DNA of 64,000 nt from NCBI GenBank assembly GCA_905612305.1, contig CAJQRK010000007.1, positions 98,660 to 162,659 on the forward strand. Reading direction: 5' to 3'. A program made the position numbers and the translations under genes. Under the pieces are notes generated by a model. It saw only the letters and a program-made list of their open reading frames with translations, was not told the DNA's origin and searched no databases. The DNA is from an uncultured Flavobacteriales bacterium. GTDB lineage: Bacteria; Bacteroidota; Bacteroidia; Flavobacteriales; BACL11. Below are positions 1-43,090 of this stretch, one piece after another (the stretch's first letter is position 1; the number at the start of each line of letters is the position of its first letter).

Positions 1-2434
1 CTGTTGTAACAATATTTCCGTTTGCAACAACTTTAACAAAATAGATTCCTGTTTCCAAAGCTGAAAAATCAATGTTATCTAATACATAGTAATTACTTGA
101 AATTTCACCTTCAAACAGATTTCTTACTTCAGCCCCTAATATATTTACTAGCTTTACTTCCACATTCATATCAGCCAATTGCTCAAGTGTAATAACTGCT
201 TGTCCATTTGTTGGATTAGGATATATAGATAATTTTGAAGCGCTTATAACAGGAGCGAATAATGCTGAAGCTTCTCCAATTTGAATATTGTCAATGTAGA
301 AATTATTTGCATTTCCAACAGTAACATATTCAAATTTAAATTTAATATTATCATTTTTCAACTGAGTTGTAGTCATAATGGTATCACTCCATTCATTCAC
401 TTCAGGTTTAAAGTTAGTTGTATAAAGACCTGCATTTGCCGCCTCTACAGGAGTTAATGAGCCTAGAACTCTCCACACTTCACCACAATCATTAGAATAA
501 TATACGTTTAATTCATTTACTGGAAAAGTATTAGCCGCCGCTCCTGACCAACTAAATTTAATTGCAGGATTTGACAAAGCGCTTAAATCATAAGCCTCAG
601 AAATTAACTCATCTCTACCAAAAGTTAAATTATCTTTATCAATCATAATACTGGCATTACCACTAACCGCTACTCCATCTTTCCATTCCCATGATGAATT
701 TTGTGTAGAACTAAAACTCCAATCACCATCAGTAGGATTTGCAGTTATATACCAATCATCTGATAAATCAGCAACATTTTCAAAGCTATAAGTATAACTT
801 CCAGCAGTATTAGAAGATGATGTAGAATTTACTGATATGAAATTCTCTTTCACTGTTGTTGATGTGCAAATATTTGCATAATATGCAACATAAGTTGTTT
901 GCTCTAACTCGCCTCTGTAGAATAAGGTATCAGGATAATACACTCCGTTCACCCAATAAGAATTAATACTATACTGATCTAAATCCAAATGAAGAGCAAT
1001 ATTTGTTGCTCCCATTGCTGTTAATTCTGACTCTGTACCTTGTACAATTATAGTTTTTACAATTGAATCATGTGAACTTGCACTTACTAAATCTAAATCT
1101 GATAAACTAGCAGCTCTAGCTTCAGTTGTTTCGTTGTATTCAATAGTTAGCGAAACGTCATAAACATCAGCATCATTATATGTATGCATATAATAATAGC
1201 CAAGCTGCTGCTGATATGATCCTGGCGTCACTGTTCCGTCACCCATATCCCATGAAACAGAAATGAGATTATCATAACTCTTAGAGTTTGAGTTTAACCA
1301 GATCTCTGATCCTTCACACATATTAGTTGATGAGGTGGAATGTTCAAAAAATTCTGCTTTATTAGAACAAGTAGGTGTTAAATACCCATCAGAAACTCCA
1401 GTAGCCGCAATATTATCTGCTGACCACATATATTCTCTAAACCCAATACCTGAAATGCCCTCATCATCCACCAATCCATTTAAAGTTTCATTCATTACTG
1501 CATTTTGCCCCTTAGTGAACATAGTGACATCATCATCATTAGAATAATCCATATAGTTCACAAACATTTCTCCAGCAGGATTTAATGAATCAGCAACACA
1601 GCCAGATCCAATACCAATATTACCAACATGATAAGGAAAATAAGAAAGATTTATTCCAAAATTTGGTCCGAATGCAGGAGGTGTATCGATTACGCCATCA
1701 TCACCACAATCAGCATCTCCCCATACATGCCTTAAACCTAACCAATGTCCACACTCATGCGTTAAAGTACCACCACTAATCATTTGGCTAGCCAACAACA
1801 CAACTCCATCAGTAGACATTCTATTGCTCCAAGGGAATTGAGCGTAACCTAACAAAGTATTCCCATCATCTTGTGGCAGAAATTTCTTTACAGTCCAAAT
1901 ATTAAGATATTGGTATGAATTCCAATAACTCAATGCTTTAACAGCATTTCCTGGCTCTGGCTCATCAGTTAATTCTGAACGAACCCTAACAATACCAGAT
2001 GTTGGATTTCCAAGAGGGTCTTTTTTTGCTAATCTAAATTCAACATTCAAATCTCCTCTTACTGACGCAAAAATATCTGGCGTCTTAGTTAAAAAATTAG
2101 ATGCCTGTCCATTCATATTTGCATTTAAAATATCCAAAGCTCCTTGAATAGAAGCATCAGAAATATTTTCACCTCCCATATCATGAATAACATGTACTAC
2201 TACAGGAATTATTTTTTTGCCATTTTCTACTTTAAGATGCGTCATTTTACTTAAAGCCGATATGTAATTAGCCTCTAAATCTGCGTTCAAACTCTCCAAA
2301 CCCTGATAAAAAGCAGGATATTTTTCTTCTTGTTCTTCATACGAACCTTCATATGTACCACAAACCCCTTGAGAGAAACCAAGGTTTGCTAACAAAAACG
2401 CTACAAAAATAAGTGGGAAGTATTTATTTTTCAT
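1..2434 (-). CDS. Secreted zinc metalloprotease, peptidase M43 (pappalysin/cytophagalysin-like), with T9SS C-terminal sorting domain; 3' end runs off the window
   Basis: Absent from the supplied ORF track because there is no stop inside the window. Reverse-strand ATG at 2434 (MKNKYFPLIFVAFLLANLGFSQ signal peptide) and the frame stays open to base 1. Zinc motif THECGHWLGLRHVWGD (HExxHxxGxxH) is encoded at ~1715-1762. The C-terminal KLSIYPNPTNGQ...GIYFVKVVANG (bases ~1-230) is typical of a Por secretion tail. Confidence 0.8.
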   Translation of the reverse strand, partial: MKNKYFPLIFVAFLLANLGFSQGVCGTYEGSYEEQEEKYPAFYQGLESLNADLEANYISALSKMTHLKVENGKKIIPVVVHVIHDMGGENISDASIQGALDILNANMNGQASNFLTKTPDIFASVRGDLNVEFRLAKKDPLGNPTSGIVRVRSELTDEPEPGNAVKALSYWNSYQYLNIWTVKKFLPQDDGNTLLGYAQFPWSNRMSTDGVVLLASQMISGGTLTHECGHWLGLRHVWGDADCGDDGVIDTPPAFGPNFGINLSYFPYHVGNIGIGSGCVADSLNPAGEMFVNYMDYSNDDDVTMFTKGQNAVMNETLNGLVDDEGISGIGFREYMWSADNIAATGVSDGYLTPTCSNKAEFFEHSTSSTNMCEGSEIWLNSNSKSYDNLISVSWDMGDGTVTPGSYQQQLGYYYMHTYNDADVYDVSLTIEYNETTEARAASLSDLDLVSASSHDSIVKTIIVQGTESELTAMGATNIALHLDLDQYSINSYWVNGVYYPDTLFYRGELEQTTYVAYYANICTSTTVKENFISVNSTSSSNTAGSYTYSFENVADLSDDWYITANPTDGDWSFSSTQNSSWEWKDGVAVSGNASIMIDKDNLTFGRDELISEAYDLSALSNPAIKFSWSGAAANTFPVNELNVYYSNDCGEVWRVLGSLTPVEAANAGLYTTNFKPEVNEWSDTIMTTTQLKNDNIKFKFEYVTVGNANNFYIDNIQIGEASALFAPVISASKLSIYPNPTNGQAVITLEQLADMNVEVKLVNILGAEVRNLFEGEISSNYYVLDNIDFSALETGIYFVKVVANGNIVTT

Positions 2435-2520
2435 ATCCAATAAATTTATTTAAATTTTTAGGAAACAAATATAATGATTATCTATTAATACGCATCCCCA
2501 TACAGAGAAATATATAAATA

Positions 2521-3375
2521 CTAGTGTATATGCTTTTCAGCATGGTAAGAAGATCGTACCAAAGGACTACTTTCAACATGCTTAAACCCTAGAGAAAGTC
2601 CAACTTCTTTATACTTAGCAAATTGTTCTGGCGTAATAAATTCAACAACCGATAAATGTTTTTTAGAAGGCTGAAGATATTGGCCAATAGTCAAAATTGA
2701 AACGCCAACTGATCTTAAATCATGCATAGTCTCTATAACCTCTTCCTTAGTTTCTCCCAACCCAAGCATAATACCAGATTTGGTTTTTACGCCTCCTTCA
2801 TTCAGAAAACGTAAAGCATCCAAACTCCTATCGTATTTTGCTTGGATTCTTACTTTTTTTGTGAGTCTTCTCACTGTTTCTATATTATGAGAAACTACTT
2901 CAGGAGCCACATCAATTATTGGCTGAATATCTTTTAACCTCCCTTTAAAGTCAGGAATTAAAGTCTCCATAGTTGTTTCGGGATTTTGCTTTCTAATCTC
3001 ATTAATAGTCTCCACCCAAATACTCACCCCTCCGTCTTTCAAATCATCACGATCAACAGATGTGATAACTGCATGCTTAACTCCCATTAATTTAATCGAT
3101 CGTGCTACATTTTTAGGCTCTAAAATATCAACTGCTAATGGACGACCTGTCATTACATTACAAAAACCACAAGAACGCGTACATATATTGCCTAAAATCA
3201 TAAAGGTTGCTGTTCCTGCGCCCCAACATTCACCCATATTTGGACAATTACCACTTTCACAAATAGTGTGTAAAGCATGAGATTTAGTAATCCCTCTTAC
3301 ATTTTTATACGCCTGCCCTGTAGGGAGTTTAACTTTTAACCATTTTGGCTTTTTAAGTTTTTGAACTGATGTCAA
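2521..3375 (-). CDS. lipA: Lipoyl synthase (radical SAM)
   Basis: 284-aa ORF with CPNMGECW auxiliary-cluster motif and CTRSCGFC (CxxxCxxC) radical-SAM motif. Confidence 0.95.
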
Positions 3376-3384
3376 AAGGCAATT

Positions 3385-3507
3385 TTATGAATTAGGTATT
3401 TGCAGTTGGATTGTTGTAACTCCCCCGCATGGTTTCTCATAAACTCCACAAGAACTAACAACCAAAATTGCAAAAAATAATAGTGTGTATAATATGGCTT
3501 TTTTCAT
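3385..3507 (-). CDS. Putative 40-aa mini-lipoprotein (below ORF-track size cutoff)
   Basis: ATG at 3507 gives MKKAILYTLLFFAILVVSSCGVYEKPCGGVTTIQLQIPNS, with stop at 3385-3387. Signal peptide plus lipobox Cys. It sits in the lipA/ung gap. Confidence 0.35.
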   Translation of the reverse strand: MKKAILYTLLFFAILVVSSCGVYEKPCGGVTTIQLQIPNS

Positions 3508-3569
3508 TGAAAATATTTTTTGACAAAAATACATTTTTAAAGCAGATTATCTATCTTTGAAATAATTAA

Positions 3570-4271
3570 ATGCCAACTACAAAATTACATATCAATTCAG
3601 ATTGGAGAACATTTTTGAAAGAAGAACTTAATTCTGAAAATGTCCAAGCAATTATTAACTCCTTACAAACAGAAAGGAATACATCTGCCATTTTCCCCAA
3701 AGACAATGAAATCTTTAACGCTTTCAACATCACTTCACTAAAAAACCTGAAAGTCATTGTTTTAGGACAAGACCCTTATCACGGAAAAGAGCAGGCTCAT
3801 GGGCTTTCTTTTTCAGTGCCCAATGGCATAAAAATACCACCATCATTGCGCAATATTTTTAAAGAATTACAAACGGATTTAAGTATCCCTATTTCCAATA
3901 ATGGAAATTTAAGACCTTGGGCAAAACAAGGTGTGCTGCTATTAAATGCTACTTTAACAGTTAGAAAAAAAGAAGCTGGGTCTCACCAAAAAATAGGGTG
4001 GGAAAACTTTACAGATAAAGTTATTGAGAAAATATCTAAAGAAAAAGAAGGCGTTATATTTTTACTTTGGGGCGCTTTTGCTCAAAGAAAATCAATATTA
4101 ATTGATGCTAAAAAACATCATATATTAACTGCTGCACATCCTTCTCCTTTTTCAGCTTACAGAGGTTTCTTTGGCTGTAAACATTTTTCAAAAACAAACG
4201 AAATACTTATAAACAATAACCAACAACCTATTGAATGGAAACTATGCTCAGAACCCTTAACTTTATTTTAA
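3570..4271 (+). CDS. ung: Uracil-DNA glycosylase, family 1
   Basis: GQDPYHG motif and C-terminal HPSPFSA motif. Confidence 0.95.
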   Translation: MPTTKLHINSDWRTFLKEELNSENVQAIINSLQTERNTSAIFPKDNEIFNAFNITSLKNLKVIVLGQDPYHGKEQAHGLSFSVPNGIKIPPSLRNIFKELQTDLSIPISNNGNLRPWAKQGVLLLNATLTVRKKEAGSHQKIGWENFTDKVIEKISKEKEGVIFLLWGAFAQRKSILIDAKKHHILTAAHPSPFSAYRGFFGCKHFSKTNEILINNNQQPIEWKLCSEPLTLF

Positions 4272-4825
4272 TTAGCCTTTTGAGTTGTAGTTCATTTGCT
4301 CAGCAACCAATAGTAAAAGTAAAAGCCTATTTGGGCAATCAAGCATTTGAAGAAATCCTATTTGTATGTATCAAAGAACAAAAGCTCTATCATATAAAAA
4401 ATGATAAAATTGTTAAAGACTATATCATTTCCTCCTCAGCTTATGGAATAGGCAGTGAAGCTGGAAGCAATAAAACTCCACTTGGCCTACATAAAGTAAA
4501 CCAAAAATATGGCGAAAAAACTCCAATAAATGGCAGAATGGTCGGTAGAGTTTTTTATGGAGAAATTGCTACTATATATACAGATAATAGTAAAAGCAAA
4601 ACAGATGATATAACAAGCAGAATATTTTGGTTAGAGGGGTTGGAAAAAGGGAAAAACAAAGGAAAAGAAATTGACTCCTACAAACGCTATATTTACATAC
4701 ACGGAACATCAGAAGAAGGACGATTAGGAAAGCCCGCCTCACACGGCTGCATAAGAATGAAAAATAAAGAAGTGATTGACTTGTACAGCCTAATAGAAGT
4801 TGGTACTTTAGTCCTCATTTTATAA
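4235..4825 (+). CDS. L,D-transpeptidase (YkuD) domain secreted protein
   Basis: Signal peptide LISLLSCSSFAQ and catalytic HGT...SHGCIRM motif. The start may be the second ATG at 4244. Overlaps the ung 3' end. Confidence 0.8.
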   Translation: METMLRTLNFILISLLSCSSFAQQPIVKVKAYLGNQAFEEILFVCIKEQKLYHIKNDKIVKDYIISSSAYGIGSEAGSNKTPLGLHKVNQKYGEKTPINGRMVGRVFYGEIATIYTDNSKSKTDDITSRIFWLEGLEKGKNKGKEIDSYKRYIYIHGTSEEGRLGKPASHGCIRMKNKEVIDLYSLIEVGTLVLIL

Positions 4826-4834
4826 AACAAAAAT

Positions 4835-6025
4835 ATGGATTTAATAGGGTCATCAATAATTGGAACAATAGTAGGGTTAATAGTCGCTATTGCATTAAGA
4901 AGACAGAAAAAAAAAGACACTCCTAATGGAGATAAAGAAAAAACATTAGAATTAGAAAAGAGTATTTCTTCAAATGAAGAAATAATTAAAAATCTTCAAT
5001 CCGAAAAAAATATTTTGAATGCAAAAATGGAATCTTTTGAAAAATTAAAAACAGAAAATACAACTCTGAAGGAAAAACTTTCCAATACTGAAAATGAAAG
5101 AAACTCATTAAAAACAAAAAATACGACTTGGGAAAAAGAGGAAGAAGGGCGAATAAAAGAATTTAAAAAAGCGATTGATTCAACCAATACCCTACAAGAA
5201 TCATTAGAAAAAGAAAAAGAAAGATTAAATGATGAAAGAGTGAAAGAAAAAGAGGTGCATTTTGACAATATGAAAAAACAATGGAGAGAACATGAAAAAG
5301 ATGTTGAGAATCATTTACAAATGATTTGCAAAAATAATGTCATTACTTACATATCTCAAGAAGAATTTCCGCACGCAAGAAACAAACCTGACAATTCCAT
5401 TGAAATTATGGACCAACTTATTGTTTTTGACGCAAAAAGTCCAGCAAATGATAATTTGAGTAATTTTTCTAATTACATTAAAACCCAAACTGAAAACCTA
5501 AAAAAATACGCAAAACACGACAATGTAAAAAAAGATTTATTCTTAGTAATTCCTTCAAGCACTTTGCATGTAATCAATCAATTCACTTACAATATGAGTG
5601 ATTACAATGTTTATGTTATAACATTAGATGCATTAGAACCTATCGTTTTAAGTTTAAAAAAAATAGAAGAGTATGAGTTTGCCGACAAACTAAGCCCAGA
5701 TGATAGGGAAAATATTTGTAGAGTAATTGGGAAGTTTGCGCATTCTACTAAAAGAAGAATACAAATTGACCAGTTTTTTGCAAATGAATTTCTAGACACT
5801 TTACATAAAGCCAAACAATTACCGAAAGATATTTTAGAAAATGTAATCCAATTTGAGAATTCAGAAAAATTAAATCCTCCAATGGAGAAAAGAAACAAGC
5901 CAATACTCACAAAAGATTTAAGAGATCAAACAGAAAAAATAAAAAAAGAATTAGAAATTCGAGATATTCCAGGAATTGAAGCTAAAATAACTTTTAAAGA
6001 AAAAGATGAGAGAACAGAAGAATAA
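4835..6025 (+). CDS. RmuC-like membrane-anchored coiled-coil protein with PD-(D/E)xK-like C-terminal domain
   Basis: N-terminal TM helix, then ~130 aa of E/K-rich coiled coil. PDNSIEIMDQLIVFDAKSP...DLFLVIPSS resembles the RmuC nuclease-like core. Assignment is by pattern only. Confidence 0.5.
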   Translation: MDLIGSSIIGTIVGLIVAIALRRQKKKDTPNGDKEKTLELEKSISSNEEIIKNLQSEKNILNAKMESFEKLKTENTTLKEKLSNTENERNSLKTKNTTWEKEEEGRIKEFKKAIDSTNTLQESLEKEKERLNDERVKEKEVHFDNMKKQWREHEKDVENHLQMICKNNVITYISQEEFPHARNKPDNSIEIMDQLIVFDAKSPANDNLSNFSNYIKTQTENLKKYAKHDNVKKDLFLVIPSSTLHVINQFTYNMSDYNVYVITLDALEPIVLSLKKIEEYEFADKLSPDDRENICRVIGKFAHSTKRRIQIDQFFANEFLDTLHKAKQLPKDILENVIQFENSEKLNPPMEKRNKPILTKDLRDQTEKIKKELEIRDIPGIEAKITFKEKDERTEE

Positions 6026-6764
6026 TCAAGAAGAAGAAAAGAACTTTATTTTCGGTATACGTGCCATAATTGAAGCAGTAGAAGCTGGGAAAACCATTGA
6101 TAAACTATTTATCCAAAAAGGATTGCATAATGATTTGTTTGCTGAACTTTGGAAGTTGGTACGCCTGAAAAGAATCAACTACAAACATGTGCCACTTGAA
6201 AAAATTAATCGTCTTAGCAGAAAAAATCACCAAGGTGTTTTTGCCTTTATTTCCCCTATTGATTTTCATAATATTGAAGATGTAGTTCCTGCTTTGTATG
6301 AACAGGGAAAAAACCCACTAATCTTGGTGTTAGACAGAATTACGGATGTACGTAACTTTGGTGCCATTGCTCGTACAGCTGAATGTGCTGGAGTAGATAC
6401 TATTTTAATTCCAGAACAAAATGCCGCTGCTATTAATGCAGATGCAATAAAAACTTCAGCAGGAGCGCTTCATAAAATTACAGTTTGCCGTACTTGGAAT
6501 TTAAAATTGGCTTTACAATTTATGAAAGATAGTGGTATGCAATTGATTGCCTGTACTGAAAAAACTCAGGACAATATGTACAAACCAGATTACATACCTC
6601 CTACGGCTATTATTATGGGATCGGAAGAAGATGGAGTTTCTCCTGAATTTTTAAAAATGTGTGATTCAAGAGCCAAAATACCTATGAATGGTAAAATTGC
6701 ATCACTTAATGTATCAGTAGCAACTGGGGTTATTTTATATGAGGTGATAAGACAGAGAAATTAA
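6006..6764 (+). CDS. rlmB: 23S rRNA 2'-O-ribose methyltransferase, SpoU/TrmH family (RlmB-like)
   Basis: N-terminal SpoU substrate-binding-like segment (IFGIRAIIEAVEAGK). SPOUT knot motifs IMGSEEDGVS and IPMNGKIASLNVSVATGVILYE. Confidence 0.85.
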   Translation: MREQKNNQEEEKNFIFGIRAIIEAVEAGKTIDKLFIQKGLHNDLFAELWKLVRLKRINYKHVPLEKINRLSRKNHQGVFAFISPIDFHNIEDVVPALYEQGKNPLILVLDRITDVRNFGAIARTAECAGVDTILIPEQNAAAINADAIKTSAGALHKITVCRTWNLKLALQFMKDSGMQLIACTEKTQDNMYKPDYIPPTAIIMGSEEDGVSPEFLKMCDSRAKIPMNGKIASLNVSVATGVILYEVIRQRN

Positions 6765-6766
6765 TT

Positions 6767-7489
6767 ATGAGTTGGTTTGCGAATTGGTTTGATTCTGAAT
6801 ACTACCATACCTTATATAAAAATAGAGATAAGAAAGAAGCTGAATTTTTTATTCAGAACTTAGTACAATACTTAAATTTTCAAAAAAAAAGAAAACTTCT
6901 TGATATTGCTTGTGGTAAAGGAAGGCATGCCACATACTTTAATTCTTTAGGATTTGATGTGGTGGGAATAGATTTATCCTCCAATAGCATAACTACTGCC
7001 AAAAAATATAAAAATGAAACACTACAGTTTTTCAAACATGATATGCGAGAAGTATATCAGGAAAATGAGTTTGATGTAGTGACTAATTTATTCACTTCTT
7101 TTGGTTATTTTGAAAAAGATGAAGACGAGCAAAAAGCCATCAATGCTATGGCTAGTAATTTGAAAGAAGAAGGGCTTTTAGTCATCGATTTTATGAATGC
7201 AAAAAAAGTAATTACTAATTTGGTAGCGAGCGAACAGAAAATAATTGATGACATTACTTTTGACATCAATCGAAAAATAGTTGATCAGTATATAATTAAA
7301 GATATTCGTATTAGTGATTCAAAAATACACCATCATTTTCAGGAGAAAGTAAAAGCCCTAACTTTGATTGATTTTTCTGAGTTCATTACACATGCAAGGC
7401 TTAAAATAATTGATATCTTTGGCAATTATAAATTGGAAGAATTTAATGCACAAACTTCTGACCGATTAATACTAATCTGCAAAAAATGA
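6767..7489 (+). CDS. Class I SAM-dependent methyltransferase
   Basis: Motif I LLDIACGKGRH and post-I GIDLS; 240 aa. Confidence 0.8.
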   Translation: MSWFANWFDSEYYHTLYKNRDKKEAEFFIQNLVQYLNFQKKRKLLDIACGKGRHATYFNSLGFDVVGIDLSSNSITTAKKYKNETLQFFKHDMREVYQENEFDVVTNLFTSFGYFEKDEDEQKAINAMASNLKEEGLLVIDFMNAKKVITNLVASEQKIIDDITFDINRKIVDQYIIKDIRISDSKIHHHFQEKVKALTLIDFSEFITHARLKIIDIFGNYKLEEFNAQTSDRLILICKK

Positions 7490-8178
7490 ATATACTAACA
7501 CTTGGCTTACTTTTCGCATCCGTAATTGCTGGAGCAATAATAGTAGAAATTTTCAAACCTAAAAAAGGAAGAAATATCCAAATGCTACTCACTTTTAGCG
7601 GAGCCTATTTATTGGCTGTCAGTGTTTTGCACTTATTGCCCGAACTTTTTAAAAACGATATCAGCAAATATATTGGCCTCTATATATTAGGAGGATTCTT
7701 AATTCAAATCGTTTTAGAATATTTTTCGCAAGGCATAGAACACGGGCATTTTCAAAAAAGCACTGTTATTCCTTTTTCTATACTTATCAGTCTTTGCCTA
7801 CATGCCCTACTAGAGGGGGTTCCTTTAGGAGGACAGTTACATGATCATGCTCATAACTCCTTGCTCACTGGCATTGTGCTACATAAAATGCCAGTAGCAA
7901 TTGTTCTAATGACTTTCTTTTTACAAAGCAACATGCAAAAATCAAAAGCCTATTTCTATTTATTATTGTTTGCTCTAATGTCACCATTAGGAGTATTTGC
8001 CGGCAATCTATTCGCAGACTTTTCCGACATTCATAATGAGATAATGGCGATGGTAATTGGTGTCTTTTTACATATTTCAACCACTATCCTTTTTGAAAGT
8101 AGTGACGGGCATAAATTTAGCTCACAAAAAATATTATCCATTATTGTTGGAGCATGTATTGCTATTTTGAGTTTATAG
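7486..8178 (+). CDS. ZIP family metal cation transporter
   Basis: Polytopic membrane protein with His-rich loops (IEHGHF, LHDHAHN) and an HKMPVAIVL/LHALLEGVPLG signature-like segment. Confidence 0.75.
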   Translation: MNILTLGLLFASVIAGAIIVEIFKPKKGRNIQMLLTFSGAYLLAVSVLHLLPELFKNDISKYIGLYILGGFLIQIVLEYFSQGIEHGHFQKSTVIPFSILISLCLHALLEGVPLGGQLHDHAHNSLLTGIVLHKMPVAIVLMTFFLQSNMQKSKAYFYLLLFALMSPLGVFAGNLFADFSDIHNEIMAMVIGVFLHISTTILFESSDGHKFSSQKILSIIVGACIAILSL

Positions 8179-8179
8179 C

Positions 8180-8707
8180 ATGAACCAACACTACGTTATT
8201 ACTGGCGCTCCTGGAACAGGTAAAACAGCCATTATAAATGCACTAAAAGAAAGAGGTTACTTCTGTGTTGAGGAAAATTCAAGAGAAATTATTAGCGAAC
8301 AGATAATAAATGGAGGAGAGATTCTTCCTTGGAAAAATCAAATTGCTTTTGAAAATTTAATTTCAAGTAAACGTGCCAAGCAATACGCAAGCATTCATAA
8401 GGATGAAATCTATTTTTTTGACAGAAGCACGATTGATTGTATTGCATACCTAAAAGCAAATAACTTAGAAACTTCCACCAAAATATTAGAGGGAATAAAA
8501 AATTGTGAATTCAACTCCAATGTATTTTACACTCCTATTTGGGAGAAAATTTATACAAATGATAGTGAGCGAAAAGAGAGTATTGAAAGCGCAATTACTA
8601 TTGAGAAATTTCTGATTTCTACCTACCAATACTTTGACTATACTTTAATAGAGATACCAAAACTAACTATTGAAGAAAGAGTAGATTTTATTCTATCCAG
8701 AATATAA
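8180..8707 (+). CDS. P-loop NTPase (AAA_28/NadR-like ATPase-kinase fold)
   Basis: Walker A GAPGTGKT at residues 9-16; 175 aa. Confidence 0.6.
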   Translation: MNQHYVITGAPGTGKTAIINALKERGYFCVEENSREIISEQIINGGEILPWKNQIAFENLISSKRAKQYASIHKDEIYFFDRSTIDCIAYLKANNLETSTKILEGIKNCEFNSNVFYTPIWEKIYTNDSERKESIESAITIEKFLISTYQYFDYTLIEIPKLTIEERVDFILSRI

Positions 8708-8764
8708 TTTTTACACCTAAATTATTCTAATTTTACCAGCAATTTAATAATCAAAAAATATAGA

Positions 8765-9265
8765 ATGGCTAACATTACACTAGACAATAATCCAACAACA
8801 ACCTCTGGGTACTTACCAAAAAATGGAGAGCAAGCAAAAGACTTTTGCTTAATTGGAAAAGATTTAAAAGAGGTGACATTAAACAATTTTCGAGGTGAAA
8901 GAATTATCATGAATATTTTCCCCTCTATTGACACGGGAGTTTGCGGCAATTCAGTAAGAAATTTTAATACAACCGCAGGAAACCTTTCTAATGTAAAAGT
9001 ACTTTGTATTTCAAGAGATTTACCCTTTGCTCAGAATAGGTTTTGTGGAGCTGAAAATATTGAAAATGTAATTACATTATCTGATTTTGTCTCAGGTGCT
9101 TTTGGAAAAGATTATGGGCTTACCATCTTAGATGGAGTATTTACTAATCTTCTGTCCAGGTGTGTTATTGTGCTGGATGAAACGCACAAAATTATATATA
9201 CTGAACAAGTTGACGAAATATCCTCAGAGCCAAATTATGAAAAAGCAATAGCTGTTTTAAATTAA
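8765..9265 (+). CDS. tpx: Thiol peroxidase (atypical 2-Cys peroxiredoxin)
   Basis: PSIDTGVC peroxidatic-Cys motif and CISRDLPFAQNRFCGAE resolving-Cys region. Confidence 0.9.
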   Translation: MANITLDNNPTTTSGYLPKNGEQAKDFCLIGKDLKEVTLNNFRGERIIMNIFPSIDTGVCGNSVRNFNTTAGNLSNVKVLCISRDLPFAQNRFCGAENIENVITLSDFVSGAFGKDYGLTILDGVFTNLLSRCVIVLDETHKIIYTEQVDEISSEPNYEKAIAVLN

Positions 9266-9268
9266 AAC

Positions 9269-9484
9269 TTAGTCAGGAATAAGTTTGTATATATAAGTAG
9301 CTAATACCGCACCTGCTATTGGACCAACAAGACAATACCCTAAATGAGATAGGGTGTTTCCGTCTCCCATTATTGCATCAGCTAATATTGATCATATTCC
9401 AGATACAGAATTATAAACTCCTGCTGAAATTTTACCACCTACAAATATAGATTCAATAATTATAAAAGCCAATTTCTGAACCAT
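9269..9484 (-). pseudogene. Remnant of the C-terminal third of a MIP/aquaporin gene (in-frame stop, degenerate NPA box)
   Basis: Reverse translation gives MVQKLAFIIIESIFVGGKISAGVYNSVSGI*SILADAIMGDGNTLSHLGYCLVGPIAGAVLATYIYKLIPD. The GGxISGG..N(PA) loop is degenerate. The Y..VGPI.GA.LA..IYK tail is typical of AqpZ/GlpF-type channels. No upstream half is present. Confidence 0.6.
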
Positions 9485-9575
9485 TAAGAGAAATTACCTT
9501 CTGTTTTGGTTTTTTCGCTATATTTAAAATTACAAAAAAAGCGCTAGTAAAAATAGCTTATACTACAAGAATCTG

Positions 9576-10238
9576 TTAACAGTCATCACAACAATCTTTA
9601 TCATGCATCAATTTGCATGAATAAACAGCTAAAATAGCACCAAGAGTTGTTGCTAACACATACAGCCATAAATGTGTTAAGTCTCCAGAAAATATTGCTG
9701 GGCCAATTGATCTTGCTGGATTCATTGAAGCTCCGCAAATAGGCCCTGCAAAAGTAGCTTCAAAAGCCACTACACCTCCTATTGCCAATGCTGCTGTAAT
9801 TCCCTTTTCTTTAGCGCCAGTCGACACATTTAAAACTACAAACATTAAAATAAACGTAAGAATTAATTCCAGTATAAATGACTGTAACCAATTGTCATTT
9901 AAAGGTAGAGTTTGACCCATAGTTTCAGCTCCTGGAAACATAAAATACAAAGTTGCTGAAGCTAATATTGCTCCTAGAATCTGAAAAGAAACATAAGGGA
10001 ATATTTCATTTTTCGGAAGTCGTTTTGCTACAGCAAAAGCAATAGTGACTGCAGGATTAATATGAGCGCCTGAAACATCACCAATAGCATAAATCATTGC
10101 CATGACCACCAAGCCAAAAGTCAAGCCGATACCTAGATGGCTCACTCCCCCTCCAGTTACACTGTCAATTACGATAGCTCCCGCACCAACAAATACTAAT
10201 ATGTAAGTTCCTAATAATTCTGCCCAATATTTTTTCAT
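9576..10238 (-). CDS. MIP family channel (aquaporin, AqpM/NIP-like) with Cys-rich C-terminal tail
   Basis: Two NPA boxes (GAHINPAVT, GASMNPARS) and six predicted TM segments. Ends ...CKLMHDKDCCDDC. Confidence 0.9.
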   Translation of the reverse strand: MKKYWAELLGTYILVFVGAGAIVIDSVTGGGVSHLGIGLTFGLVVMAMIYAIGDVSGAHINPAVTIAFAVAKRLPKNEIFPYVSFQILGAILASATLYFMFPGAETMGQTLPLNDNWLQSFILELILTFILMFVVLNVSTGAKEKGITAALAIGGVVAFEATFAGPICGASMNPARSIGPAIFSGDLTHLWLYVLATTLGAILAVYSCKLMHDKDCCDDC

Positions 10239-10343
10239 ATTTTTAATTTTACGTTATTTAAGTATGTGTCAATATAATATATAAAAAATTACTTAGAGAA
10301 AAATACGCTCTCTTTTTTATAAACTAAAATTCAACTAGAAGAA

Positions 10344-12554
<2,211 letters not shown>

Positions 12555-35989: not shown

Positions 35990-36064
35990 GGGCGATTAAC
36001 TCAGTTGGTTCAGAGTGCCTCCTTTACACGGAGGAAGTCGGGGGTTCGAGTCCCTCATTGCCCA
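35990..36064 (+). tRNA. tRNA-Val, anticodon TAC (UAC), no encoded CCA
   Basis: Folded by hand into a cloverleaf. Acceptor GGGCGAT/ATTGCCC, D stem ACTC/GAGT, anticodon stem CCTCC/GGAGG with loop TTTACAC, T stem GGGGG/CCCTC with loop TTCGAGT, discriminator A. Confidence 0.9.
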
Positions 36065-36065
36065 C
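36044..36065 (+). repeat. attL core (within tRNA-Val T-loop/acceptor 3' strand)
   Basis: GTTCGAGTCCCTCATTGCCCAC; 21/22 identical to 43069-43090. Confidence 0.85.
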
Positions 36066-36175: not shown

Positions 36176-36237
36176 AAGGTGTCCTATTAGGTGTCCTTTT
36201 TTAAGTTTTGAAATGGGACACCAGAAAGAGTGTAAAG
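36176..36237 (+). promoter_or_regulatory. Candidate integrase/Xis arm-type sites, left end
   Basis: GGTGTCCT-ATTA-GGTGTCCT (36178-36197), inverted GGGACACC (36215-36222) and AAGAGTGTAAAG (36226-36237). The same 22-mer and the inverted 12-mer recur at the right end. Confidence 0.5.
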
Positions 36238-37564: not shown

Positions 37565-37733
37565 AAAAATATTTAATCCTATATACGACAAACCATGGTG
37601 TATAAATAGACCCTCATAATGGTTAGTTACTCACATTATGTTGAAAAGCAAATTAGAGATAATACTTAATTTTGACTAATTATTCAATTAAAATTTGTTA
37701 TATGATATTAATACAAATCAATACATATTAAAT

Positions 37734-38003
37734 ATGGATAAAAACAACTTAGTTACAGTACAAGACCTTCAAAAAATGAAAGAAGAAATTATTAGTGAAA
37801 TAGCACTAATAACAGAAAAAACAACTACTCAAAAGGAGTGGCTAAGGTCAGCAGAGGTAATGAAGATGCTAACCCTTTCCACAGGTACACTACAGAATCA
37901 TAGAATCAATGGAAAAATCCCTTACACTAGGATAGGGGGCACTCTTTATTATGAGCGTAAAGCAATACTTAAAGTGCTTAACGATAATAAGAGAGCTGCC
38001 TAA
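37734..38003 (+). CDS. Excisionase/AlpA-like helix-turn-helix (HTH_17) protein
   Basis: First ATG at 37734 (the track uses an alternative start, 37695). EWLRSAEVMKMLTLSTGTLQNHRINGKIPYTRIGGTLYYE is the MerR-superfamily excisionase-type HTH. Its stop overlaps the next gene's start. Confidence 0.7.
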   Translation: MDKNNLVTVQDLQKMKEEIISEIALITEKTTTQKEWLRSAEVMKMLTLSTGTLQNHRINGKIPYTRIGGTLYYERKAILKVLNDNKRAA

Positions 38004-39535
38004 TGAGTAAAGAAGTTAAGAACAAATACATACCCAAAAACTATAACCACAGTATTTTACTGAAAATTCATTCTCCTAATAAGGAGGATTATAAACCTAA
38101 AGAATATAAGGTTTATCAGCTCTTAGCAATGATTAACGAGCTATACCCAATGCAGGAGAACCAAAGGCTTTTGTATGGGGATTATACCTATATAAGTGCT
38201 ACTAAATTGAAACACTTATTTGGTAATGATTATAAGGCAACTGTTGATTGGTTGGTTAAAGCTGATGTTTTCAAAACAGATAATCAATATATCAATGGTA
38301 AAAAATGTAAGGGGTTTAGTTTTACAGATAGTTATGCGGATGCTACTCCTAAGAAAGTAACCATTTGTAAGGGTTCTTTAGTAAGGAAGCTTTCTAAAAA
38401 ATCTAATTCATCTTATGCTACTGAAAAAAAGTATGGCTTCTTATATAAATATTTAGATGGCTTAGAAATTGATGTAGAGGGGGCTTCTGAATGTGCTTGG
38501 AGTATGTATAAGCAAGATAAATTAGAATACTCTAGTAAGTTAGCTAAATATGAGTTAAAGGTAGCTAGTGCCACTTATAAAAGTAAATCATTAAAAAAAC
38601 CTGCAAATCCTACAGTTAGGTTGACTGTTGGTTTAGATAATATAGATAGGATTGATAACAAAGATTTTGGTTTTACACAAGATTCAACTGCATATAGGGT
38701 GCATACTAACCTTACTAATATTAAAAGTGAGCTTAGGAATTATGTTACTTATAATGGTCAGCCAATAGTATCAGTTGATTTTGCAAATTCACAGCCAATG
38801 CTTAGTACTACACTGTTAAGTCCAGTGTTTTGGAATACTGACGCCACAGCAACTGCAGAAATGGAGGAGAAAATTCTAAAAAAAGGTTTAAAACCTAATA
38901 TTCTTAATAATTCAGACATATTACCCAGTGTTTTCAGTGATATTATAACAATGTCTTGTAATCCCTTTAGCTATACTTCTTATATTATGTTTACAAAAAC
39001 AGGTATTCCACCTGTAAGTATAGCTGTTCCTGTTGATATTCAAAGGTATATTGACCTTTGCCAGAGTGGGGATTTGTACAAGTTTCTATCAAAAGAAATG
39101 CAGTTAGAACAACAGGGTATAGCTGATATTGATGGTAGGGGTGTTAAGGCAGCAGTATTTCAAGTGTTGTTTACTGATAACAGGTTCTTAGGACAAGCTG
39201 ACGCTAAACCTAAAAGAATATTTAAGGAATTATTCCCATCTGTTTATGATATACTCTTTCATATTAAGCGTAATGATAGCACAGTCCTTCCTATTACCCT
39301 ACAAATTATTGAAAGTACTATTATTTTGAATAGAGTGGCAAAGCGTATTTCTATTGAAAGACCCAACTTATTTATTACTACTATTCACGATTCTGTTGCT
39401 ACTACATTAGGTAATGAGGATTATGTAGAGCAAGTAATGCGGGAAGAAATGATAATAGCAATAGGTCTTGAACCATCTTTTAAAGTGGATTATTGGTCAG
39501 CTGATAATCCTATAACAATTAAAAAAACAGCATAA
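38003..39535 (+). CDS. Hypothetical 510-aa protein with family-A (Pol I/T7-like) polymerase-like motifs; putative element replicase
   Basis: Real ORF, translationally coupled on both sides. YRVHTNL (231-237), IVSVDFANSQPML (D259), RGVKAAVFQVLF (K382/F386/F390) and TTIHDSVATT (H462/D463) occur in the order expected for PolA pre-motif A and motifs A, B and C; the K382/F386/F390 spacing reproduces the motif B K-x3-F-x3-Y register. The function is inferred, not demonstrated. Confidence 0.45.
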   Translation: MSKEVKNKYIPKNYNHSILLKIHSPNKEDYKPKEYKVYQLLAMINELYPMQENQRLLYGDYTYISATKLKHLFGNDYKATVDWLVKADVFKTDNQYINGKKCKGFSFTDSYADATPKKVTICKGSLVRKLSKKSNSSYATEKKYGFLYKYLDGLEIDVEGASECAWSMYKQDKLEYSSKLAKYELKVASATYKSKSLKKPANPTVRLTVGLDNIDRIDNKDFGFTQDSTAYRVHTNLTNIKSELRNYVTYNGQPIVSVDFANSQPMLSTTLLSPVFWNTDATATAEMEEKILKKGLKPNILNNSDILPSVFSDIITMSCNPFSYTSYIMFTKTGIPPVSIAVPVDIQRYIDLCQSGDLYKFLSKEMQLEQQGIADIDGRGVKAAVFQVLFTDNRFLGQADAKPKRIFKELFPSVYDILFHIKRNDSTVLPITLQIIESTIILNRVAKRISIERPNLFITTIHDSVATTLGNEDYVEQVMREEMIIAIGLEPSFKVDYWSADNPITIKKTA

Positions 39536-39788: not shown

Positions 39789-39859
39789 ATAATAACTCAA
39801 AATGCCAGAATCTAATGTATATATCTGACTACCTATAAATAGCATCATAATTACGTAAA
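39789..39859 (+). repeat. Intra-element direct repeat, copy A
   Basis: ATAATAACTCAAAATGCCAGAATCTAATGTATATATCTGACTACCT matches 42803-42848 at 41/46 positions. Both copies are followed ~15 nt later by (A/G)ATTACGTAAA. Confidence 0.8.
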
Positions 39860-40279
39860 TAACTACTAATCAATTATTTACAATTATACTATTGGAATTA
39901 CCCTTATTAGTGTAAAATAATGTCTGGCAAAGTATTGTTATTAAGACTTACATCTACCCAGCAGTTCCGAACTCAAACAAACCTATCAATGATTAATTAA
40001 TAAAAGTTAGTTATTTATTATATTGAAGTATTTTAAGGTTTTTAAGGCTTAAAAAGAGAATAATTAACAACTCTACATCCTGTAAATTGAGCATATAGAT
40101 AGTTATAAAATTGAACTTTAAATGTGGCTGTTTAAGTGTGTTTCTTCAAGTGGTAGTTGAGGTGTTGCTTACGGTATTTAGTTCTTAACCTATATAAATA
40201 AACTCAAACTATTGAAAATAGATATATTATAACTAAGTTTGGGGAGTTTAAAACAATAGATTAACAATAAAATAAGATT

Positions 40280-41089
40280 ATGAAAAAAATACTATTTGGA
40301 TTATTACTATTTAGCTTTGTAAATGCATTATCAATAAATCCAGTTATTGAATACCTATATGAACCTGATTCTTTAGGATTAGATTTTAAAGAGTATCAAC
40401 TACTAACTAAAGATAAAGCTAAAATAAATAGTTGGTGGCTTAGTCCATTGGTTAAAAATGATAATAACAATAATGTTATAATAATTGCAGGAGGTGATGC
40501 TGGAAATATGTCTTATTTATTAAACCATGCTTACTCCATAAGCTATAACGGATACAATGTTGTATTATTTGATTACAGAGGGTTTGGCAAAAGTTCAAGT
40601 TTTGAAATAAATCAAAAGCAACTGTATTATAACGAATTTACAGATGACCTAGAAACTGTTATTAGTAAAGTAAAAGAAAAATGGAATGATAAGAAAATTG
40701 GAGTTTTAGCTTTATCAATGGGAACAATAATAACAAACTCTTATTTGAAAACACATACTCTTGATTATATTATTTTAGAGGGAGTTGTCAGTAATACAAG
40801 TAACTTCACAACAAAAGTTGAAAATTTAAAAAATCGTAAAATATTACTCCCAAAATCTTCTAAGAAGTATGATGAATTATTTTTTGTAAATCTACAAAAT
40901 GCAAAAAATGTAATTATTTTTCATGGAACTGAAGATAATTTTTCTGAAATCACAGAACTTAAAAAGATTAAAAAAATAAATATTATAGAATTTAATGGAG
41001 GGCATTTACAAGGATTTCATTCACTAAGTAAAAATTATTTTGGAGATTTATATATCAATCATATCACGAGTTTTTTTAATAATAAATGA
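40280..41089 (+). CDS. Secreted alpha/beta-hydrolase (serine hydrolase)
   Basis: Signal peptide, FDYRGFGKSS, nucleophile elbow GVLALSMGT, acid FHGTEDN and His NGGHLQGF. Confidence 0.7.
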   Translation: MKKILFGLLLFSFVNALSINPVIEYLYEPDSLGLDFKEYQLLTKDKAKINSWWLSPLVKNDNNNNVIIIAGGDAGNMSYLLNHAYSISYNGYNVVLFDYRGFGKSSSFEINQKQLYYNEFTDDLETVISKVKEKWNDKKIGVLALSMGTIITNSYLKTHTLDYIILEGVVSNTSNFTTKVENLKNRKILLPKSSKKYDELFFVNLQNAKNVIIFHGTEDNFSEITELKKIKKINIIEFNGGHLQGFHSLSKNYFGDLYINHITSFFNNK

Positions 41090-41258
41090 AGTTTCCATTT
41101 TTTTAATGATTTAATTTCTATTTTAAAGAGGAGATGTAAAATTAACTCTAATGCTTGAAAACAGTCTTATTTATAAAAAGCGAAATCTATTTACAAATTA
41201 TACCACTTTGGAAAGAATACGTACAGTTAAACCTTTATTTTAACATGAAAAAACAAAA

Positions 41259-42362
41259 ATGAGATTAATTATAATACTTTCAGTCCTACAATTTTATGCA
41301 GCAATTATTTATGCTCAAAACTCAGATACCACTTCTGCTTTAATAAAACATTCTGAAATTTTTAGAATACAGCTAGAGCAAGATAGTACTCTAAATAAGG
41401 AATTAGAATTAGTTGACTATTTTTTAAATAAAAAATATGATTCAATTAATATTCAAAGTAATAGTTCAGAACAATTTAAAAAATATAGTTTAAATTTTTA
41501 TTCCTCTAAATATTATAAAAATAAAGATAATGAATATGTAATTTTATCTTCTAAGCAAGATGCAGAGAAAACAAACTTTAAGGTTATCTACAAATTAAAC
41601 TCAGAAGCATTTAATTTGAAATATGATGATTTCTATAATGCCATTTTTAATTTGAATTTCATTAAGAAAGAAGGTGAAACATACCTAGATATTAGTCCTG
41701 ATTATACTGATTATAATACATATTCAATTGAAAATATTACCTTTTACCAACTAGAACCTTTTACTGAATTAGAGAAAAAGGAATTAGTAAAGGATGTGTC
41801 CTTTTATTTTGAGATGTATAAACGATTTGAGGTAAAGAAAAAAACTCAGCCATTAAAAATAATTAATATTAATTATTTAAGCAGTTTACACTTTATCGGT
41901 TTTGATTATGCTTTAATGCAGACTGGAATAACTATACCTGATGAAAACCTTCTTCTTTCTCCTGAATATTTATCAAACAAACATGAAATGATTCATTATA
42001 TCCTAAATGGAGAATATAAGTTTCGTACTTTTATAAATGAAGGAATAGCAACTATTTATGGAGGTAGTGGTGGTCAAACTTATCAAAAGAAATTAGAAAA
42101 TGTAAGTAATAAAATAACTGCAGAAGAAAGAGAGGATTTTATTAAATTCCTTGTTGAGGGTAAAAGAGTTGGAGGTGATTTTCAGGATTTTTATTATTCA
42201 ATATCAGCAAAATTAGTTGATTTATATAGGATAAAGGAAGGCTTTACGGATAAGGAGCTTATTGATGCTTTGAATAATCTTAAAATAACACACAAAGAAT
42301 TTATTATAGACAAGCTAAAGGAAGAGAATCCTAGTGAGTTTATCAATTCCATTTTTTATTAA
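41259..42362 (+). CDS. Secreted putative gluzincin metallopeptidase (peptidase_MA-like)
   Basis: Signal peptide. HEMIH (41991-42005) is followed 15 residues later by NEGIATIYGG, the HExxH...EGxAxY pattern of MA-clan peptidases. Confidence 0.55.
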   Translation: MRLIIILSVLQFYAAIIYAQNSDTTSALIKHSEIFRIQLEQDSTLNKELELVDYFLNKKYDSINIQSNSSEQFKKYSLNFYSSKYYKNKDNEYVILSSKQDAEKTNFKVIYKLNSEAFNLKYDDFYNAIFNLNFIKKEGETYLDISPDYTDYNTYSIENITFYQLEPFTELEKKELVKDVSFYFEMYKRFEVKKKTQPLKIININYLSSLHFIGFDYALMQTGITIPDENLLLSPEYLSNKHEMIHYILNGEYKFRTFINEGIATIYGGSGGQTYQKKLENVSNKITAEEREDFIKFLVEGKRVGGDFQDFYYSISAKLVDLYRIKEGFTDKELIDALNNLKITHKEFIIDKLKEENPSEFINSIFY

Positions 42363-42802
42363 AAAATACTTATATATATTTATACAATTAATTATTATAT
42401 AATCAATATACTGTAAATAGGTGAATTATAATAAGACTGTTTGAAGCAAAATGGACACCTCAAAAAATAGGATTAAAGTTTAATAAAGAAGATGAAAAGT
42501 AGAAAAACAACAGACAGTAGAGAAAAAGATTGTTGTTGAGTAAAACAAAAGTGCATAATTTCTATTATATAATGTGCCATTTAAGAAAGGTATAAGCGAA
42601 AACCTTACAGGAAGCTCTAAAGGTTCGGTAAGTGCGACTACTAAGCTTGTAAGAGAGTTAATTGCCATCAACATTACCTTTACAGATACTAAAGAAGAGG
42701 AATAAAGCTATGTATTAGCACTAAAACGACATCAAATCTGACAACATAAAAAAGAAAACCCTTGTAAATCATTAATACTTATTTTGAATACAATTTTAGT
42801 GT

Positions 42803-42873
42803 ATAATAACTCAAAATACCAAAATCTAGTGTGTATATCAGACTACCTTTTAACACAAAGGTGATTACGTAAA
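42803..42873 (+). repeat. Intra-element direct repeat, copy B
   Basis: See copy A (39789-39859). Confidence 0.8.
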
Positions 42874-42968: not shown

Positions 42969-43018
42969 CTTTACACTCTTGCTAAAAGATTCCAATAAGG
43001 TGTCCTATTAGGTGTCCT
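42969..43018 (+). promoter_or_regulatory. Candidate integrase/Xis arm-type sites, right end
   Basis: CTTTACACTCTT (42969-42980) is the exact inverse of 36226-36237. AAGGTGTCCTATTAGGTGTCCT (42997-43018) is identical to 36176-36197. Confidence 0.5.
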
Positions 43019-43068: not shown

Positions 43069-43090
43069 GTTCAAGTCCCTCATTGCCCAC
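43069..43090 (+). repeat. attR core: displaced original 3' end of tRNA-Val, continuing into an encoded CCA
   Basis: GTTCAAGTCCCTCATTGCCCAC followed by CA (so ...GCCCACCA). Confidence 0.85.

Follow-up and report, generated by a model that had tools for sequence, protein, structure and literature searches.

A TV-Pol-like family-A polymerase as the candidate replication protein of a small tRNA-Val island in an uncultured Flavobacteriales bacterium

What replicates a small mobile island? The question is raised by a locus in an uncultured Flavobacteriales bacterium (BACL11 lineage), where an element of about 7.0 kb sits at a tRNA-Val gene and encodes, in this order, an integrase, an excisionase-like helix-turn-helix (HTH) protein, a polymerase-like protein of 510 amino acids (aa), and cargo. 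All positions given here refer to a 64,000-nucleotide (nt) window, the whole stretch of DNA that was analyzed (assembly GCA_905612305.1, contig CAJQRK010000007.1, positions 98,660 to 162,659 of the forward strand), and those of the features are collected in Table 1. An original prediction, made by eye, proposed that the 510-aa protein may be a replicase encoded by the element itself, pointing to five short segments that recall family-A DNA polymerases (PolA). Our findings support that reading. The protein is predicted to have a PolA fold with an intact two-metal polymerase active site, its catalytic residues are invariant among distant relatives, and its gene is the only candidate replication gene of the island and the sole conserved gene of the mobile backbone that is not a recombination gene.

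The open reading frame (ORF) was confirmed, with an ATG start whose first base lies within the stop codon of the upstream gene. All five PolA-like segments were found in the predicted order and at the predicted residues, with D259 encoded at 38777-38779 and H462-D463 at 39386-39391, and the comparison strings and residue numbers were verified in the fetched sequences of Escherichia coli polA and phage T7 genes 1 and 5. In the E. coli polA translation, GRVHTSY occupies residues 653-659, and VSADYSQIELRIMAHL, KDIHRATAAEVF, RRSAKAINFGLIY, and MIMQVHDELVFEV contain D705, D732, K758, and D882, respectively. Aligned with DNA polymerase I (Pol I), YRVHTNL (R232) and the subsequent R245 of the 510-aa protein correspond to GRVHTSY (R654) and R668, D259 and Q264 to D705 and E710, G356-D-L-Y359 to D732-IH, K382, F386, and F390 to K758, F762, and Y766, Q434 to Q849, and H462-D463-S464 to H881-D882-E883. 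The distance from the DIH segment to the motif B lysine is 25 residues versus 26 in Pol I, and that from the glutamine motif to motif C is 29 versus 33. From D259 to D357 there are 98 residues versus 27 in Pol I; the 70 or so extra residues noticed by eye between motifs A and B are thus a real insertion of 71 residues after motif A. Between the motif B lysine and motif C, the protein has about 90 residues fewer than Pol I.

The relatives of the protein form a very large family. A word-indexed search detected 220 homologs, and an exhaustive search retrieved 7,771 cluster representatives at an E value of 1e-3 or below (clusters at 50% identity), of which 2,474 reached 1e-30 or below. In an alignment of 58 sequences with a mean identity of about 35% (A1), D259, K382, H462, and D463 are invariant. 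A wider set of 71 sequences joins the main family to a compact, phage-borne branch of about 390 to 420 aa (A3), the two branches being 20 to 25% identical, and in all 71 sequences D227, R232, H234, R245, D259, Q264, P265, Y359, K382, K422, E437, T460, H462, D463, and S464 are invariant. The conservation of D259, K382, and D463, which had been proposed as a check on the prediction, therefore holds down to about 20% identity. The family also has signatures of its own, D-I-x-N-S-Q-P and T-I-H-D-S. Its near-identical members in records P0062, P0086, and P0106 are annotated by NCBI as "hypothetical protein," and the automatic names in UniProt are inconsistent, being either "DNA-directed RNA polymerase" (two members) or [quoted passage not shown]

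An AlphaFold2 model of the 510-aa protein, built on the alignment (pLDDT, 87.8; pTM, 0.87), presents a right-hand fold of thumb, palm, and fingers with motifs A, B, and C in order, the same fold as that of Klenow, KlenTaq, Bst, and T7 DNA polymerase. Searched against the PDB with Foldseek, the model gave 83 matches at an E value of 1e-3 or below, and the top 50 were all family-A DNA polymerases at a probability of 1.0, including Pol I of M. smegmatis, Aquifex, E. coli, Bacillus, and Thermus, as well as DpoZ, Pol theta, and the apicoplast polymerase. TM-scores against the PDB were low (0.2 to 0.4), because the subdomains are hinged and the target structures are larger. Among predicted viral structures, two proteins of about 400 aa aligned over nearly their full length (TMt of 0.79 and 0.72; E values of 1.5e-22 and 1.5e-18), and one of these two end-to-end matches bears the name "putative DNA polymerase I." No T7-type RNA polymerase (RNAP) was among the top 50 PDB matches, and the first RNAP in the viral list stood at rank 49; as modeled, the structure is nearer to Pol I-type DNA polymerases than to T7 RNAP. 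Given the fold search and the residues invariant across two divergent branches, the motif match is far beyond chance.

The first 230 or so residues, which the original prediction had left unassigned, proved not to be a single block. In the model, an N-terminal domain (residues 1-157) is followed by the thumb, a pair of helices (158-218) that is already part of the polymerase core. Residues 224-260 then form the Arg hairpin and the first palm strand (253-260), which ends in D259, and residues 263-452 form helical fingers that include a variable insertion (273-343), the motif B helix (378-390), and a helix bearing LQxIES. H462-D463 sits in the motif C hairpin (residues 459-468), which leads into the last palm helix and strand. 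The only stretch of low confidence or disorder, residues 317-338, lies within the fingers insertion. When the N-terminal domain was modeled alone, its pLDDT was 91.8, and its weak structural matches were nearly all winged-helix DNA binders, namely, MarR, ArsR, PadR, Fur, ScpB, TubR, the replication terminator protein, and Rep-DNA complexes of staphylococcal plasmids; a winged-helix-like DNA-binding domain is a reasonable but unproven reading of this model. The absence of a 3'-5' exonuclease, also foreseen by eye, was borne out, in that residues 1-224 hold no conserved DEDD-like acidic set and the N-terminal domain, modeled alone, is unlike exonuclease folds. On the same two grounds, we rejected the idea that this domain is a relic exonuclease.

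The element is a discrete insertion, and the polymerase gene lies, as predicted, directly after the integrase gene and an AlpA/Xis-like gene, the latter now assigned to HTH_17. A scan of one genome per species yielded 48 loci, all in the Bacteroidota and spread over the Flavobacteriaceae, Chitinophagaceae, Sphingobacteriales, and Bacteroidales, and most of them show the order tRNA (mostly tRNA-Ser), integrase, HTH_17, polymerase. When every ORF of the 48 loci was clustered, the polymerase recurred in all 48, the integrase in 32 (upstream of the polymerase), and HTH_17 in 26, and no further cluster occurred in more than 8. No helicase, binding protein for single-stranded DNA (SSB), primase, nickase, or nuclease was recurrent in these loci, nor was any gene downstream of the polymerase, where the cargo differs in every related island and includes restriction-modification genes, Mrr, OGG, and metal efflux genes.

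A backbone of 3.6 kb, running from the tRNA-Ser end to the polymerase stop codon, has a DNA identity of 84 to 96% across at least eight genera of the Flavobacteriaceae, among them Winogradskyella, Algibacter, Lacinutrix, Arcticimaribacter, Maribacter, Hyunsoonleella, and Polaribacter (loci L018-L028, L014, and L041; about positions 3900-7520). The stop codon is exactly where homology ends; the cargo that follows is unrelated. Such high identity between genera, ending at that codon, places the polymerase in a recently mobile, conserved backbone and not in the cargo; to judge from these nucleotide comparisons, it indicates a modular island recently transferred between genera.

Eight loci (L049-L056) carry only a C-terminal remnant of the polymerase. 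In the one inspected, L051, 255 aa of the polymerase are left (5800-6567), truncated beside a block with a serine recombinase and ParB/methylase-like genes, with a CzcA-like efflux pump downstream; loci of this kind look like decayed islands invaded by another element. The islands of Puia sp. (Chitinophagaceae; L002/L003, 6359-7942) have a DUF6617 gene between the integrase and HTH_17 genes and a 133-aa ORF between the HTH_17 and polymerase genes.

A polymerase of this architecture and context has been described before. Minimal PolA/T7-RNAP-like polymerases of transposons and viruses, the TV-Pols, were the subject of the paper to which the original prediction had pointed (Iyer, Abhiman, and Aravind, 2008, Biol Direct 3:39; PMC2579912). 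They were described as having a two-helix thumb, an Arg hairpin, two palm aspartates, and an RxxxK fingers helix but no nuclease, and they were predicted to be primase-polymerases (PMC2579912). A subset carries an extra N-terminal domain (TV-PolN) and has lambda-type integrase, resolvase, or transposase genes as neighbors on small mobile elements, stand-alone N-domain genes adjoin some TV-Pols, and among the species listed are Cytophaga, a Flavobacteriales bacterium, Polaribacter, and Psychroflexus (PMC2579912).

The 510-aa protein shares the core features, from the two-helix thumb to the lack of a nuclease. In the model, the two antiparallel thumb helices stand directly before the Arg hairpin, which bears R232 and R245 and precedes the motif A strand. 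The palm is RRM-like and presents two putative metal-chelating aspartates, D259 and D463, at residues 253-260 and 459-468. The fingers are helical, follow the first palm strand, and carry K382, with an arginine four residues earlier (K-4) in 51 of 58 relatives, and the neighborhood holds no recurrent nuclease. With regard to the TV-PolN subset, the protein does have a domain ahead of its core and a tyrosine integrase gene next door, but an all-helical structure was predicted for TV-PolN, whereas the N-terminal domain here is modeled as alpha/beta and winged-helix-like, and a D5-like helicase is not linked to the family in the 48 loci.

For a sequence link to a named member we compared the family with the MAP_030 group of Microcystis phage Ma-LMM01. 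MAP_030 is presumed to be the TV-Pol of the 2008 paper from its motif series (GLRVYE, VNYDVVKCH, VKTAVLAVINGA, LLQRIEVDS, and QHDGAL) and its adjoining IS605 transposases. Its profile is shallow, consisting of MAP_030 and six homologs, and a scan of viral contigs for further relatives returned almost only copies of 90 to 94% identity, plus one at 46%. The proposed assignment to the class to which the original prediction had pointed stands on structural and contextual features and not on a profile link to a named member (values below). The gene is best filed as a member of the known, under-studied TV-Pol-type polymerases of mobile elements, and the very large family to which it belongs, itself without a database model, fits the N-domain-bearing branch of that class. 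Specific to the family are the NSQP and TIHDS signatures, the glutamine at the steric gate, and the winged-helix-like N-terminal domain without a helicase or SSB partner.

The experimental precedent is CcPol of SCCmec, a TV-Pol with a family-A domain that synthesizes DNA primers de novo when bound to the single-stranded DNA (ssDNA)-binding protein MP (Bebel et al., 2020, eLife; PMC7581432). This priming uses dNTPs and depends on two catalytic aspartates, and no other TV-Pol had been characterized biochemically, according to its authors (PMC7581432); no later paper with biochemistry of another TV-Pol was found in the literature searched. In the PolA-SSB primases, which occur in SCCmec and other Bacillota islands, a small OB-fold partner is encoded directly downstream of the polymerase, followed by a helicase (Rice, 2023; PMC10061031). 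Like CcPol-MP, the protein studied here is an exonuclease-deficient family-A polymerase encoded in an island core beside recombinase genes. Unlike the case of CcPol, neither the OB-fold partner MP nor the following helicase is conserved around the 510-aa family in the 48 loci, and we therefore rejected a PolA-SSB pair of the CcPol type. In CcPol, a portion of the 3'-5' exonuclease fold persists and the TV-Pol N-domain is absent, whereas the 510-aa protein has its winged-helix-like domain; the steric gate of CcPol is a glutamate (E174), whereas the 510-aa family has an invariant glutamine; and CcPol comes from Bacillota with serine recombinases, whereas the 510-aa protein comes from Bacteroidota with a tyrosine integrase.

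The slot of the CcPol partner is occupied in our island by a 64-aa ORF. It has a tblastn match in none of 51 related loci, which makes a functional role as partner improbable, and as an MP- or SSB-like partner it was rejected; the ORF is probably spurious or strain specific. Among other systems, the primase-rep proteins of SaPI/PICI, AEP PrimPol-helicase fusions, and piPolB of pipolins share the slot after int and xis and a presumed autonomous start of replication, but their catalytic folds or families (DnaG/Toprim, AEP, and PolB) are unrelated, and they usually come with a helicase domain. The small marine elements named Charybdis (2025 preprint) were considered and are unrelated.

Taken as a whole, these observations make it rather probable, in our judgment, that the protein is the island's own replication primase-polymerase, which would start DNA synthesis itself after its N-terminal domain has bound the element. 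We infer its activity and its priming because no other initiation function is found in the islands, because TV-Pols were predicted to act in this way in 2008, and because CcPol does so in experiment. As a working model, Int and the HTH_17 protein would excise the island as a circle, and the polymerase would bind element DNA through its winged-helix-like domain. It would then begin DNA synthesis de novo with the two-metal site of D259 and D463, K382 and the O-helix, and the R232/R245 hairpin. From there, it might copy the small circle, or its primer might be passed to the host replisome, and the excised element would be kept or amplified for transfer. The fused N-terminal DNA-binding domain could stand in for the ssDNA-binding partner of CcPol.

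Several results weigh against this proposal. Nothing meaningful came from single-sequence and profile searches of Pfam, PHROGs, NCBIfam, PADLOC, and PDB sequences; the sole matches, to GAPDH and bL20 at E values of 0.3 to 1, are noise. Pfam DNA_pol_A (PF00476) matched neither the 510-aa protein nor any of the 58 members even at an E value of 10, in a test in which the true minimal PolA of a megaphage locus (L007) scored 1.2e-19. Against the MAP_030 group, hhalign gave E values of 0.31 (A1) and 0.053 (A3), collinear and not significant. The best PDB match of the N-terminal domain had an E value of 0.066, also not significant. At K-4, where lysine replaces arginine in a further 5 of the 58 relatives, the 510-aa protein has G378, its arginine being R379 at K-3. 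CcPol primes only with a separate OB-fold partner, and none is conserved in the 48 loci. Nothing convincing in the way of iterons or an origin was found in the noncoding regions of the island. Finally, the invariant glutamine gate, the HDS form of motif C, and the phenylalanine at the Y766/Y639 position leave the product, DNA or RNA, not readable from sequence.

Other sequence comparisons were equally silent. T7-type RNAP (PF00940) had no Pfam match to the 510-aa protein or the 58 members, and widening the family profile with the compact phage branch left the PDB polymerases still out of reach. Comparison by hhalign of the family profile with single sequences of T7 DNA polymerase, T7 RNAP, and a minimal phage PolA gave insignificant matches of short, motif-level extent, namely, LLQxIES to LLQSAGA of T7 DNA polymerase and, weakly, motif C to IHDSFGT of T7 RNAP. 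An HMM search of the family profile against the ORFs of Ma-LMM01, T7, and E. coli polA returned true family members only. With no match in sequence and profile databases, the case cannot rest on them. Of the routes that the original prediction had suggested, profile searches gave nothing, and the structure search returned family-A polymerases only, with the right-hand palm.

The alternative that survives best is a primer-dependent DNA polymerase with no priming of its own, supplied with a primer by host DnaG, by a transcript or R-loop, or by a recombination nick, for instance, for strand displacement on the excised circle. The structural matches, all of them primer-dependent Pol I-type enzymes, agree with it, as does CcPol, which on its own extends primers only, and so does the want of a conserved ssDNA-binding partner in the 48 loci. 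Relatives in phages bear on it from both sides. A 15.6-kb viral contig (L084; IMGVR_UViG_3300020048_000927) encodes, within positions 1096-11173, a serine recombinase, an RNase H, a 513-aa family member, and a large terminase; the contig resembles a small temperate phage or satellite relying on the family polymerase, and the RNase H gene near the polymerase hints that RNA primers may take part.

Phage contigs ranging from 86 to about 640 kb contain compact members of the family. In the megaphage LR756511.1 (L007), a 387-aa member (4010-5173) lies directly upstream of a 428-aa DNA_pol_A gene (5170-6456; Pfam, 1.2e-19), the stop and start overlapping. A division of labor between the two polymerases could go either way, but a true PolA in tandem with the family member implies that the two genes do different jobs, which counts against the primer-dependent alternative. 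No recurrent PolA or helicase partner of the compact branch was seen in three further phage contexts. Elongation by a borrowed primer would, moreover, leave initiation unexplained in islands without a primase, helicase, or nickase, and the conserved extra N-terminal domain suggests template or origin binding, which a purely elongating enzyme would not need. We regard the primer-dependent alternative as fairly unlikely.

A single-subunit DNA-dependent RNAP, T7-like in function and transcribing island or phage genes, is less likely again. The steric-gate position (D+5) is glutamate in Pol I (E710 of Klenow), T7 DNA polymerase, and CcPol and glycine in T7 RNAP; in all 71 sequences of the family it is glutamine (Q264). 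Motif C reads HDS, like that of T7 RNAP (H811-D812-S813). With the superfamily fold, the gate other than glutamate, the UniProt name given to two members, and the weak local match over T7 RNAP motif C, these features recall T7-type enzymes, and the substitutions E710 to Q264, Y766 to F390, and E883 to S464, along with the lack of exonuclease domains and the insertion after motif A, set the protein apart from Pol I. At K+8, however, the residue equivalent to Klenow Y766 and to T7 RNAP Y639, which reads the 2'-OH, is phenylalanine in 70 of the 71 sequences. The protein is also roughly half as large as T7 RNAP, without the N-terminal and promoter-recognition parts of that enzyme, its structural similarity to RNAPs is weaker than that to DNA polymerases, and the slot after int and xis is the position of a replication module.

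Still less likely is a defense or conflict effector with a polymerase fold, akin to the abortive-infection systems based on polymerases or reverse transcriptases and carried by islands with restriction-modification genes. Adjoining cargo is often of the restriction-modification or Mrr/GmrSD type, and the neighboring HTH_17 protein has a weak PADLOC match (E = 0.0011) to mad1 of the MADS defense system, which probably reflects merely a shared HTH. The polymerase itself has no PADLOC match, belongs to the invariant backbone and not to the variable cargo, and has relatives in large phage genomes of the lytic type and beside a terminase. That the resemblance is a coincidence and the protein no polymerase, a reading favored by the failure of every sequence-profile search to reach a polymerase family, is effectively refuted by a fold search that returns family-A polymerases alone and by the invariance, in 71 sequences, of the residues predicted by eye.

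The remaining features of the island accord with a mobile element (Table 1). The sequence AGGTGTCCT occurs four times in the window, all at the two island ends, against 0.19 occurrences expected; by their placement, these repeats are probable candidates for arm-type sites of the arm-binding domain of the integrase. In about 18 metagenomic contigs, flanked on the left by a folC-like gene, the tRNA 3' end joins CAAAAAGAAACCCACTC without interruption. The folC-like gene of these contigs is about 70% identical to that of the window, and their right flanks have no blastn match to the htpG side of the window, so they represent related, not isogenic, genomes. One contig (L079) bears the right end of the 7.0-kb island. 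The GC content is 22 to 26% in the cargo (39800-42400) between the 71-nt repeats versus 30 to 34% in the int-xis-pol core, which suggests either that a cassette brought in the cargo or that the repeats serve in regulation or recombination. An Rfam scan detected tRNA only.

Table 1. Features of the tRNA-Val island and its polymerase gene, in window coordinates
Feature	Position	Strand	Basis
tRNA-Val(TAC), target of integration, with the attL core at its 3' end (36044-36065)	35990-36065	+	ARAGORN; Rfam tRNA, 65.7 bits
Left candidate arm-type repeats: two direct copies of AGGTGTCCT (36177, 36189) and an inverted GGGACACC (36215-36222)	36177-36222	.	
Tyrosine integrase, 409 aa	36335-37564	+	Pfam Arm-DNA-bind_5, 3.5e-22; Phage_int_SAM_5, 1e-17; Phage_integrase, 1.5e-17
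HTH_17/excisionase-like DNA-binding protein, 102 aa; stop codon overlaps polymerase start	37695-38003	+	Pfam HTH_17, 1e-08; PHROG excisionase families
Polymerase-fold protein, exonuclease-less family A, TV-Pol-like, 510 aa	38003-39535	+	ORF, fold model, conservation
Predicted N-terminal domain, aa 1-157; alpha/beta, winged-helix-like, with conserved xGxKSKGYRF hairpin	38003-38473	+	Modeled alone
Predicted thumb, a pair of long helices running antiparallel (aa 158-189 and 203-218)	38474-38656	+	Model secondary structure
Arg hairpin (YRVHTNL; R232, H234, R245) and motif A strand (VSVDFANSQP; D259, Q264, P265)	38672-38818	+	Invariant in 71 sequences; motif alignment to Pol I
Variable fingers insertion, aa 273-343	38819-39031	+	Gap rich and poorly conserved in A1; missing from shorter compact phage relatives (384-424 aa)
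Core of the fingers and passage back into the palm: G356/Y359, O-helix-like motif B (K382, F386, F390), K422, LQxIES (Q434, E437)	39032-39358	+	
Motif C hairpin (TIHDS; T460, H462, D463, S464) and C-terminal palm helix/strand	39359-39532	+	
64-aa ORF; ATGA overlap with polymerase stop codon	39535-39729	+	No Pfam, PHROG, NCBIfam, or PADLOC match
71-nt direct repeat, left copy; flanks low-GC cargo	39789-39859	+	80% identical to 42803-42873
Cargo: alpha/beta hydrolase (40280-41089; Pfam Hydrolase_4/Abhydrolase_1) and 367-aa protein, function unassigned (41259-42362)	40280-42362	+	
71-nt direct repeat, right copy	42803-42873	+	
Right candidate arm-type repeats: two copies of AGGTGTCCT and a degenerate third at 42985	42998-43018	+	
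attR core, copy of tRNA-Val 3' end; the terminator hairpin of the tRNA itself comes next	43069-43090	+	22-nt direct repeat, 21 of 22 identical to attL

One more relative deserves mention for its economy. A complete viral-fraction contig of 6,313 bp (L099; IMGVR_UViG_3300032235_001248; 1-6313) has perfect terminal inverted repeats (TIRs) of 123 bp and no integrase, and a 525-aa family member is its only replication-type gene, the others being cargo of the restriction-modification type (an EcoRI-like methylase, GmrSD_N+HNH, Mrr_cat, and HTH_3). This may be a linear TIR element whose replication depends on the family polymerase, or else a piece of the assembly graph with an inverted repeat at its borders. 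We also put forward, tentatively and with more doubt than conviction, a stronger form of the primase-polymerase proposal, in which the whole family would consist of self-sufficient, single-polypeptide, origin-binding primase-polymerases, a winged-helix N-terminal domain fused to a minimal PolA core, without a helicase, SSB, or separate primase of their own. Such an enzyme would initiate, and perhaps complete, the replication of excised islands of 5 to 20 kb, of small phages, and possibly of linear TIR elements, and its invariant glutamine in place of the steric-gate glutamate would give relaxed or mixed use of ribo- and deoxyribonucleotides (rNTPs and dNTPs).

This study was concerned with a single gene of one uncultured bacterium, and the existence of such a gene will not surprise a specialist. 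Small islands of the Bacteroidota carry defense and accessory genes between genera, and the polymerase is the only candidate replication protein aboard. Its family comprises thousands of clusters that NCBI calls hypothetical and that have no Pfam, PHROG, or NCBIfam model, and a family profile would correct the annotation of many genomes and phages. The 2008 prediction was that TV-Pols are a new kind of primase-polymerase, and the member that has been tested is one atypical, two-subunit enzyme, CcPol-MP. To learn how a family-A polymerase can start chains de novo, a soluble member that joins polymerase and DNA-binding domain in a single chain would be well suited, and the size of the family, its missing annotation, and its single-chain architecture together make it a good experimental entry point. 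If the family were indeed self-sufficient, it would add to the bacterial primases a third class that is widespread, with 7,771 clusters at 50% identity, and so far unannotated.

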